A stretch of DNA of 64,000 nucleotides from an uncultured Bacillales bacterium (GTDB taxonomy: Bacteria; Bacillota_I; Bacilli_A; RF39; UBA660). The stretch spans positions 6,201 to 70,200 of the forward strand of contig CAMOSD010000001.1 of assembly GCA_946624595.1 (NCBI GenBank), given 5' to 3'. The notes under the pieces are model-generated. The model was given only the letters and a program-made list of their open reading frames with translations. It did not search any database and had not been told where the DNA came from. Shown here in pieces: positions 61,985 to 63,237 of this stretch (its first letter is position 1; each line of letters opens with the position of its first letter). A program made the translations under genes and the position numbers.

Positions 61985-63237
61985 TGTGAAAATGGCGCTC
62001 ACACACTTAACCTGCTCATCACAGGGGTTAATTAATCATTAATATAATGATGACAAATTATAGATTAATTAGCTAACGAGGGTAAAATCTCGTGACAAAT
62101 TTTTATGAATTGATTTGACAAATTAAAAAATTTTTGATATAATGAGGAAAATAATACGAAAGGTGTATCCGAATTATGGAAAAAATTTATATTTATAAAT
62201 ACGTTAATAAAATTAATGGACATGTTTATGTAGGTCAAACAAATGATTTACAAAAAAGATATAATGGGCATAAAAGCGATAGTTTAAATCCAAATAGCCA
62301 TAGTTATAATTATCCTTTATCAAAAGCCTTTAGAAAATACGGAATAGAAAATTTTTCTTACGAAATTATTGAAGAAACTGATGATAGAGAGGTAGCTAAT
62401 AAAAAAGAAATATATTGGATAGAAAAATTAAAAAGTCATATTTCTCAAGGAGGGTATAATATTACTAAAGGCGGTGAAAGTCATAATGGACAAAAAGTGC
62501 CTTGGGAAGAATTATTAACTAAAGGGAAAGTATTTACGTCAGAAGAAATAGTTGATATTCAAAATCAACTTATTCAAGGTGCATTATATAATGACCTCAT
62601 CGAGCAATATAAGCCTAGATTAACAAGAACTTTTTTAAGTAATTTAAATCATGGTGTAAATTATAAAAATCCAAAATTAAGCTATCCTTTAAAAAAAGAT
62701 TTCTCAGGAGAAAAAAGCCATTTTAGCAAAGAGGAAATTCAAAACATTAAGCAAGATATAAGAAATGGTGTTAGATATTCTGATATTCAAAAAAAATACA
62801 ATATAGAAAGTGCCGGTTTTATATCAGGAATTAATACTGGAAGATATTTTTTTGATAAAAGAGAATCTTATCCTCTTTGTTTAAAAGGATGCGCAGATAA
62901 AAGTTGGATTTGGCCTTGTATAAATGATATTGTTTATAGTAGTGATTCTCTTGTAACTATAGCAAAAAAATATGGAAAAGCTGAAAGTACAATTAAAAAA
63001 CTGGGACAAGGAAGAGCTAATAAACAAGATAAATTAATTTACCCTTTAAGAAGTCATAGAGAAGAAAATAAACGTATTTTAAAATCATTATCGTAAAAAA
63101 ATGTTGTATCGACTATCCTGGGTTAGACCGGGAGTACTGAAACTATTGATACGTTTTGGGAAATAGTGTGCAGAGGAGAGTATGTCAAAACTCACTACAA
63201 ACTCTGTAAAAAATAGTCAGTTATTTATAAAATAATG
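61985..63237 (+). mobile_element. Group I self-splicing intron (approx 1253 nt) carrying a GIY-YIG homing endonuclease ORF
   Basis: Candidate internal guide sequence GGCGCU (61994-61999) pairs with the exon-1 end AGCGU, with a G-U wobble at the splice site. P7-like halves cgacta (approx 63109) and tagtcag (approx 63214). Terminal G63237. Splicing restores GYSFSV|IHALAYSFIGFQTAYIATHWSPIYWDAACL, matching DnaE GYAFNKSH.AAYA...QTAYLKAHYP. Confidence 0.55.
62176..63096 (+). CDS. Intron-encoded GIY-YIG homing endonuclease (306 aa), no TAG
   Basis: IYIYKYVNKINGHVYVGQTNDLQKRYNGH...YWIEKL GIY-YIG core. Repeated NUMOD-like C-terminal modules. Confidence 0.7.
   Translation: MEKIYIYKYVNKINGHVYVGQTNDLQKRYNGHKSDSLNPNSHSYNYPLSKAFRKYGIENFSYEIIEETDDREVANKKEIYWIEKLKSHISQGGYNITKGGESHNGQKVPWEELLTKGKVFTSEEIVDIQNQLIQGALYNDLIEQYKPRLTRTFLSNLNHGVNYKNPKLSYPLKKDFSGEKSHFSKEEIQNIKQDIRNGVRYSDIQKKYNIESAGFISGINTGRYFFDKRESYPLCLKGCADKSWIWPCINDIVYSSDSLVTIAKKYGKAESTIKKLGQGRANKQDKLIYPLRSHREENKRILKSLS

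Follow-up and report, generated by a model that had tools for sequence, protein, structure and literature searches.

The DNA analyzed here is a window of 64,000 nucleotides (nt) near whose end a gene of a large (~140 kb) phage, encoding a dnaE-type (family C) replicative DNA polymerase, is interrupted. The interrupting segment, positions 61985-63237 (1253 nt), is very probably a group I intron, and it carries a gene for a GIY-YIG homing endonuclease; the exons, the intron, and its elements described below are all on the forward strand. An earlier note on this DNA had proposed the same reading, and it was borne out by pairings with both exon ends (P1 and P10) and a terminal guanosine (omega-G), by a P3-P7 pseudoknot, by covariation, and by an open reading frame (ORF) lying in the P6 loop. 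Every element listed in that note was recovered, displaced by one base at most.

The interruption is evident from the reading frames. Exon 1 (59427-61984), in which Pfam recognizes the PHP, DNA_pol3_alpha, and DNA_pol3_finger domains, ends with ...GYSFS followed by GU. In the list of ORFs, the unspliced frame (59427-62042) runs beyond GYSFSV through 19 codons of non-homologous insert and stops at TAA (62040-62042). Exon 2 (63238-64000, leaving the window at its end) begins U AUU CAC, that is ..V I H; its frame opens at 63239 (IHALAYSFIGFQTAY...), contains an HHH_6 domain (Pfam), and continues past the window end. When 61984 is joined to 63238, the product reads in frame as ...PQMGYSFSV|IHALAYSFIGFQTAY..., giving an uninterrupted ...PQMGYSFSVIHALAYSFIGFQ... 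The insertion point lies inside the DnaE motif GY.F..H..AY, and excision restores GYSFSV|IHALAYSF. The break after GYSFSV, the resumption at 63238, the rebuilding of a conserved DnaE block across the junction, and the position of the insert in the conserved core of the polymerase were thus all as the earlier note had described them.

A homing element is expected to leave intron-plus and intron-less alleles coexisting among near-identical polymerase genes. IMG/VR was scanned for uninterrupted dnaE with the 165-aa peptide of the spliced junction, and at 80 loci (L124 and 79 more) this query was matched by a single contiguous stretch of ~495 nt, as against ~25 intron-bearing dnaE loci among the matches listed. 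The best intron-less locus, L124, is 92.4% identical at the nucleotide level to window positions 59321-61979 and 96.5% identical from 63238 on; it is colinear with exon 1 as far as 61979 and with exon 2 starting at 63238. Five bases of L124 lie between the two exon alignments, and precisely 61985-63237 is missing. Because L124 resumes at 63238 without the 1253 nt, the segment is an insertion at a precise point; the comparison with intron-less relatives, named as a check in the earlier note, therefore turned up an allele without exactly the proposed intron. Over 60 nt to either side of the junction, the sole difference between the two alleles is AGCGT in the window (61980-61984) versus TCGAT in L124 (2660-2664). 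It coincides with the five exon bases engaged in P1 and sets the Ser codon AGC against TCG, and Val against Ile. This patch looks like either a very short co-conversion tract or a result of selection for P1 pairing, and it may make the intron-plus exon resistant to endonuclease cleavage. Such presence/absence polymorphism at one site among near-identical polymerase genes, with exon changes only at the junction, is what defines a mobile intron. An intact 1284-aa dnaE gene also occurs in Enterococcus phage VRE9_3, and a megablast search of the dnaE region against GenBank phages gave no match.

Both splice sites are specified by pairings that follow the exon sequence. In the P1 hairpin (61980-61999), exon AGCGU (61980-61984) pairs with the guide GCGCU (61995-61999) at all five positions, including the U61984.G61995 wobble at the 5' splice site; this is the guide (GGCGCU) and the G-U pair that had been proposed. 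Among 15 relatives P1 is complete in 14 and has four of five pairs in L083, with the U.G wobble in every case, and three of its pairs show compensatory changes in an alignment of 16 dnaE introns described below. Guide and exon change together, from AGCGU/GCGCU in the window to AGCAU/GUGCU (L080), CAGGU/GCCUG (L073), and CGCGU/GCGCG (L016). P10 joins AAUG (61991-61994) to the start of exon 2, UAUU (63238-63241), with four of four pairs in the window and three or four in the 15 relatives; it too differs between insertion sites, being UAUU/AAUG at the window's site and CACA/UGUG at a neighboring one. The terminal base of the intron, G63237 in the window, is a G in 15 of the 15 relatives checked; the terminal G had been listed in the earlier note.

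Between the splice sites, the RNA can be drawn as a group I core in which a P3-P7 pseudoknot encloses P8 between the 3' strands of P3 and P7, and P3 and P8 covary. The 5' strand of P3 (CACACU, 62002-62007) pairs with AGUGUG (63165-63170), directly preceded by the linker GAAAU (63160-63164); it is 100% paired, with compensatory changes in three of six pairs. Two extra hairpins stand between P3 and the GCUAA in front of P4. Hairpin A (62011-62025) has the covarying stem CCUG[C]/[A]CAGG and the loop CUCAUCA, and hairpin B (62028-62072) has an outer stem (62028-62037 with 62063-62072), compensatory in 9 of its 10 pairs, and a UGACAA/UGGCAA-like tip. The P4-P6 domain follows with J3/4 (UAA), P4, P6, and J6/7. 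J3/4 and P4 (62073-62093) comprise GCUAA and ACGAG (62076-62080) paired with CUCGU (62089-62093) around the 8-nt loop GGUAAAAU, all invariant in 16 relatives. P6 (62094-63105) pairs GACA (62094-62097) with UGUU (63102-63105) across a 1004-nt loop, is 97% paired, and is compensatory in two of four pairs. J6/7 and the 5' strand of P7 (63106-63116), GUAUC and GACUAU (63111-63116), are invariant and include the 'CGACUAUCC' core common to the T4 td intron. P7.1 (63117-63132; CCUGG/CCGGG) and P7.2 (63137-63159; CUGAAAC/GUUUUGG, with the 9-nt loop UAUUGAUAC at 63144-63152) are both 100% paired, with compensatory changes in 5/5 and 5/7 pairs, respectively. P8 (63171-63206) pairs CAGAG (63171-63175) with CUCUG (63202-63206) around an internal branch and is compensatory in four of five pairs. 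J8/7 and the 3' strand of P7 (63207-63220) are again invariant, consisting of UAAAAA, AUAGUC (63213-63218), the bulged A63219, and G63220, and they agree with the Rfam consensus AAGAUAUAGUC, to judge from its alignment to relatives. An extra pair, C63110-G63220, extends P7 across the bulge, so that the cgacta/tagtcag halves of the earlier note resolve into GACUAU/AUAGUC plus this pair. P9 (UUAUUU/AAAUAA, compensatory in four of six pairs) and omega-G complete the intron (63221-63237).

The covariation was counted on a hand-written structure in an alignment of 16 distinct dnaE introns from which the ORF-bearing loop had been deleted. Bases were paired in 94.4% of cells, compared with 37-44% in controls whose 3' partners were slid by 1-3 columns. 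Double (compensatory) changes were present in 43 of the 73 pairs, and none of 500 shuffles attained the observed values; such changes were seen in P1, P3, P6, P7.1, P7.2, P8, P9, and hairpins A and B. A single-sequence minimum free energy (MFE) fold of the ORF-deleted window RNA (z = -3.1) also contained P1, P3, hairpins A and B, P4, P7.1, P7.2, P8, and P9; the long-range P3 was recovered, and the pseudoknotted P7 was the exception. Two other candidates for P3 were rejected. One paired the 3' strand of hairpin B with the CUAUUGAU loop; hairpin B and the P7.2 stem covary locally, and it is CACACU/AGUGUG that covaries. The other was GUAUC/GAUAC.

Several points weigh against the group I assignment. 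The 16 aligned sequences are mutually related, and both the deletion of the ORF and the structure string were made by hand. P4 and P7 are invariant in the alignment and thus contribute no covariation evidence. Unlike in a canonical core, no P5 and no J4/5 internal loop can be drawn in the window, and P4 is closed by its 8-nt loop. Finally, Rfam gave no hit for the whole window at the gathering threshold, no Intron_gpI hit for the intron with its flanks at E <= 10, and no hit for the 3' half of the intron alone at E <= 10.

A search with the Rfam Intron_gpI model had been suggested in the earlier note, with the lack of a covariance-model hit named as an outcome that would speak against a group I intron. 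That is literally the outcome obtained in the window, yet it is not a valid test for this intron class. The T4 td intron, run as a control at E <= 10, scored 40.3 bits against a gathering score of 50, and just its 3' half was aligned; likewise, at the gathering threshold there was no hit in 20 loci that hold family members, one of them ORF-less. We therefore discount the negative result, because a proven intron such as td also misses the gathering score and the controls from the family are silent too. At E <= 10, two ORF-less relatives in L085 did match Intron_gpI (RF00028), with E = 3.5e-5 (29 bits) and E = 0.11, and in the better match Rfam aligned P4, P5, P7, and P9 where we had placed them. 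Also in L085, Rfam reported a weak match to RAGATH-35 (E = 0.71) at 1342-1426, which covers the 5' portion of an ORF-less intron with its CUCAUCA hairpin loop. Chance is the probable explanation, though RAGATH-35 might represent a piece of introns of this class.

The insert might also be the remnant of a group I intron that has lost the ability to splice, which would leave this dnaE copy as a pseudogene or reliant on a protein cofactor. The missing P5, the 8-nt loop on P4, and the blindness of Rfam even at E <= 10 are what such decay might look like. However, the P5-less form has an invariant sequence in at least 20 distinct phage contigs whose exon proteins are 32-87% identical, the other helices keep compensatory changes, and in both exons the frame stays open over a long distance and encodes conserved domains (Pfam). 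Decay is very unlikely because the same architecture, including the odd P4, has been kept in at least 20 such divergent contigs; splicing may nevertheless depend on a protein cofactor.

A free-standing GIY-YIG gene might instead have split dnaE into two associating DnaE polypeptides with no RNA splicing. There is reportedly a precedent in phage Aeh1, whose NrdA is split by mobE, and such a split would agree with the lack of a group I match in Rfam and with an endonuclease gene that has its own putative promoter and ribosome-binding site. Against it, the earliest in-frame start codon of exon 2 is codon 103 (63545), with no Shine-Dalgarno sequence, and a separate product lacking the first 102 codons would lose the H..AY..Q block. 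Moreover, the ~330 nt of non-coding sequence around the ORF form covarying helices and pair with the ends of both exons, and the pairing of guide and exon covaries across four insertion sites. The absence of an exon 2 start before codon 103 and the conserved RNA pairing with both exons contradict a split gene, which we regard as extremely improbable. Genes for DNA polymerase III alpha are classic hosts of inteins, but reading frames and protein domains exclude an intein as well as a group II intron here. The insert is not fused in frame, since dnaE runs into a stop after 19 codons of it and the ORF starts and ends with codons of its own; GIY-YIG is the sole Pfam match (there is no Hint, LAGLIDADG, or reverse-transcriptase domain), and Rfam has no group II match. 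The group I intron is thus the reading followed below.

The endonuclease gene (62176-63096; 306 aa), also called by the earlier note, lies wholly inside the P6 loop, with its stop codon at 63094-63096. It matches the GIY-YIG family PF01541 (1.4e-9), PHROG homing-endonuclease families including PHROG 7168, and TIGR01453 'group I intron endonuclease' (78.5 bits, above the cut-off of 56). The catalytic domain of I-TevI (PDB 1MK0) is matched with E = 8.5e-8, and the positions of the catalytic Arg, Glu, and Asn are kept; in this alignment YIY...YVG, KR, E, and GYN of the window protein correspond to residues that we take to be Y6, Y17, R27, E75, and N90 of I-TevI. Its C-terminal 200 aa, for which Pfam gave no family, consist of three ~60-aa repeats, each ending with (S/I)YPL. 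Upstream of the gene and inside the P6 loop is a promoter-like site (62115-62143), TTGACA-17-TATAAT with an extended -10 TG, which matches the sigma-70 consensus at 12 of 12 positions, the sole perfect match in the region; it is kept only in the closest relatives (L009, L028, L059, L067). A Shine-Dalgarno sequence, AAGGUG (62160-62165), stands 10 nt before the ATG. The endonuclease is probably transcribed from its own sigma-70-type promoter, which suggests that its expression is independent of dnaE in the promoter-bearing lineage.

The ribozyme is unusual in several respects. P2 is absent, the gap between guide and P3 being 2 nt, and, where hairpin A lies in the window, each of 96 distinct family members has a hairpin whose loop contains AUC. 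Family members with substitutions in the P7.2 loop (loci L205-L306) were collected, and the loop of hairpin A was compared. Where L7.2 has UGAU, the matching hairpin A tetramer AUCA is present in 68 of 85 introns. Where it has UGGU, the matching ACCA is present in 27 of 41 and AUCA in none; UAAU goes with AUUA in 6 of 8, and UCAU with AUGA in the single intron that has it. Because the two loops change in step, a 4-bp kissing interaction between them is supported, which in the window would join 62018-62021 (AUCA) to 63147-63150 (UGAU). The alternative pairing of J6/7 GUAUC with GAUAC of L7.2 is disfavored, since variants at G5 and A6 of L7.2 are compensated in the hairpin A loop and not in J6/7, a comparison limited by the search pattern, which fixed the J6/7 sequence.

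The P5-less P4 with the loop GGUAAAAU is found in the window's dnaE lineage and in three non-dnaE loci (L006/L030 and L057). In sister introns (EF1 and L085), a td-like P4-P5 stands at the same place and is aligned by Rfam to P4/P5; in the sister lineage of EF1, L121, and L091, the sequence GCUAACGGGGAA...GACAAUCCCGUG corresponds to J3/4-P4-J4/5...J5/4-P4'. In the P5-less core, the loop GGUAAAAU may act as a stand-in for J4/5. As in subgroup IA2 (the T4 td / Twort type), both P7.1 and P7.2 lie between P7 and the 3' strand of P3 (63117-63132 and 63137-63159). Whereas IA2 introns have P2 between P1 and P3 and an extended P9 region, described as P9.0-P9.2 (PMC4227781), the window intron lacks P2 and has one short P9 hairpin before omega-G, and we call it IA2-like. 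On these features we tentatively suggest, as a possibility rather than a probability, that the family is an undescribed structural subclass of group IA, abundant in uncultured phages and characterized by the lack of P2, the kissing hairpins, and a P5-less lineage to which the window belongs. Literature searches for P3.1/P3.2-type hairpins, for such L7.2 features, and for phage DNA polymerase III genes with group I introns found nothing specific, and no description of the unusual features listed above, the kissing contact included, came to light, older subscription literature being outside the scope of these searches.

The family is large. A distant blastn search with the intron returned short pieces only; a core conserved in its 3' non-coding part recurs in the second intervening sequence of dnaE in Enterococcus phage EF1. 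A pattern search of IMG/VR with the core TATCGACTAT N15-45 CTATTGATAC gave at least 120 stretches, and more than 200 IMG/VR loci were retrieved in all. Among the matches listed, 25 introns interrupt dnaE within the GY.F..H..AY motif or close to it, each with an ORF of ~1 kb. The core is confined, among 50,697 phage records in GenBank, to three Enterococcus phages (EF1, EF5, and VRE9_3), Lactococcus AM1-like phages, and, in partial form, Lak megaphages, and none of these records annotates it. The dnaE introns occupy four staggered sites within 15 nt, counted from the His codon of the motif: -17 (EF1, that is L001, with L121 and L091), -10 (L075 and L079), -4 (the window and 11 others), and -2 (L016, L060, L069, L073, and L083). 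The introns at these sites carry homologous GIY-YIG genes and guides matched to each exon context.

Some further observations concern individual members. The EF1 dnaE gene is annotated as three coding sequences (CDSs), and a further intervening sequence upstream in it (L001 2522-3346) encodes an HNH endonuclease, with 'Phage intron' as the note in the record. In VRE9_3, near the genome end (L002 ~2285-3100), an 88% match to the P7-P7.2 core of the window follows directly after a 'homing endonuclease' CDS, and small 'hypothetical protein' CDSs have been called over the ribozyme region; this site is probably another unannotated intron of the family. Loci L025, L075, L085, L112, and L122 each hold two family introns 0.5-2 kb apart, some of them ORF-less and ~290 nt long. 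Exact 26-27-nt matches to the P7.2 region of the family (GAGUAGGGCUACUAUUGAUACG...) in the Prevotella Lak megaphages MK250015-MK250028, whose records are without annotation, suggest that the same intron class exists in these genomes.

The closest well-studied counterpart is the T4 td intron with I-TevI, a group IA2 intron for which self-splicing and homing are experimentally established. The sequence of its 3' part, verified to be 100% identical to T4 (L204), was compared element by element, the helix assignment in td being our own reading of the sequence together with textbook knowledge; a MAFFT alignment of the 3' halves was misaligned beyond P7.1 and was not used. The two introns share a GIY-YIG ORF in the P6 loop, an identical P7 (GACUAU/AUAGUC) with the C-G pair across a one-base bulge in the 3' strand, the 'CGACUAUCC' core, the linkers AGUA and GAAAY, and the order P7, P7.1, AGUA, P7.2, GAAAY, P3', P8, J8/7, P7'; both also fall below the Rfam gathering score. 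However, td has P2, a normal P4-P5, and a 4-nt P7.2 loop, has no hairpins between P3 and J3/4, and resides in a thymidylate synthase gene rather than a polymerase gene. The catalytic domains of the two endonucleases are 33% identical, whereas the window enzyme has the three (S/I)YPL repeats as its DNA-binding part and no match to the C-terminus of I-TevI.

The second dnaE intron of EF1 and EF5 (MF001358/MF001361, unannotated) is in the same host gene and conserved motif as that of the window, and it has hairpins A and B, the 9-nt L7.2, and the same P7 and J6/7. Its ORF in EF1 is 33% identical to that of the window (E = 2e-35). Its insertion site (ggg t|at tct) differs, lying 17 nt ahead of the His codon and 13 nt upstream of the window's site; it also retains a td-like P5, and in EF1 its endonuclease has two C-terminal repeats instead of three. 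EF1 additionally has the putative intron with an HNH endonuclease further upstream in the gene.

Ever since the work on T4 and SPO1, conserved replication genes of phages have been known to harbor homing group I introns. In phages of Gram-positive bacteria, DNA polymerase introns are represented by those of SPO1 with I-HmuI and Bastille with I-BasI (PMC3984707). Compared by description rather than by sequence, these are, like the window intron, mobile group I introns placed where an essential replication gene is most conserved, with related introns at nearby, non-identical sites, but they interrupt family A polymerases and encode HNH nickases, whereas the window has a family C polymerase and a GIY-YIG enzyme. 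The nrdF intron of the Bacillus cereus group with I-BthII, for which splicing in vivo has been shown (PMC2248736), is also a group IA intron with P7.1, P7.2, and a GIY-YIG gene starting in the P6 region, and it itself has a P6a. It differs in its bacterial host, in its ribonucleotide reductase gene, and in an ORF that extends into P7, whereas the window ORF stays inside the P6 loop.

From this anatomy we infer how the intron would splice and move. In the pre-mRNA, the guide 5'-AAUG|GCGCU-3' (61991-61999) would form P1 with the end of exon 1 (AGCGU) and P10 with the first bases of exon 2 (UAUU), while the core would assemble from P3/P8, P7 with P7.1/P7.2, and P4/P6. An external guanosine would attack after U61984, G63237 would then enter the P7 pocket, and the exons would be ligated at the junction ...UUUAGCGU|UAUUCACGC... 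(...AGCGU|UAUUCAC...). Ligation would yield the motif GYSFS-V-IHALAYS and a full-length polymerase. In a mixed infection, the endonuclease would cut intron-less alleles such as L124, the candidate substrate being the L124-type site ...TTTTCGAT|TATTCAC..., and the break would be repaired with the intron-plus genome as template, thereby gaining the intron.

Elsewhere in the window, and unusually for a phage, an 827-aa ORF (30771-33254) encodes a vault repeat together with the shoulder domain of the Major Vault Protein (3.4e-21). The genes around it encode an RNA ligase, gyrB/gyrA homologues, an NAD-dependent ligase, DnaB, and a RecD-like helicase.

The intron is an ordinary selfish element, but its ribozyme is structurally deviant and belongs to a subclass that is widespread and unannotated. 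For annotation, the polymerase is one spliced gene and not two fragments plus a 'hypothetical protein'. Rfam Intron_gpI at its gathering score misses even T4 td, as well as the window intron and its family, so phage introns that carry ORFs cannot be rejected on the lack of an Rfam match. The four staggered positions at one motif make up a compact natural data set on the retargeting of introns and endonucleases. As a ribozyme, the family is informative through a covariation-supported tertiary contact and a P5-less variant, and if the P5-less introns self-splice, P5 would be dispensable in a natural group I core.

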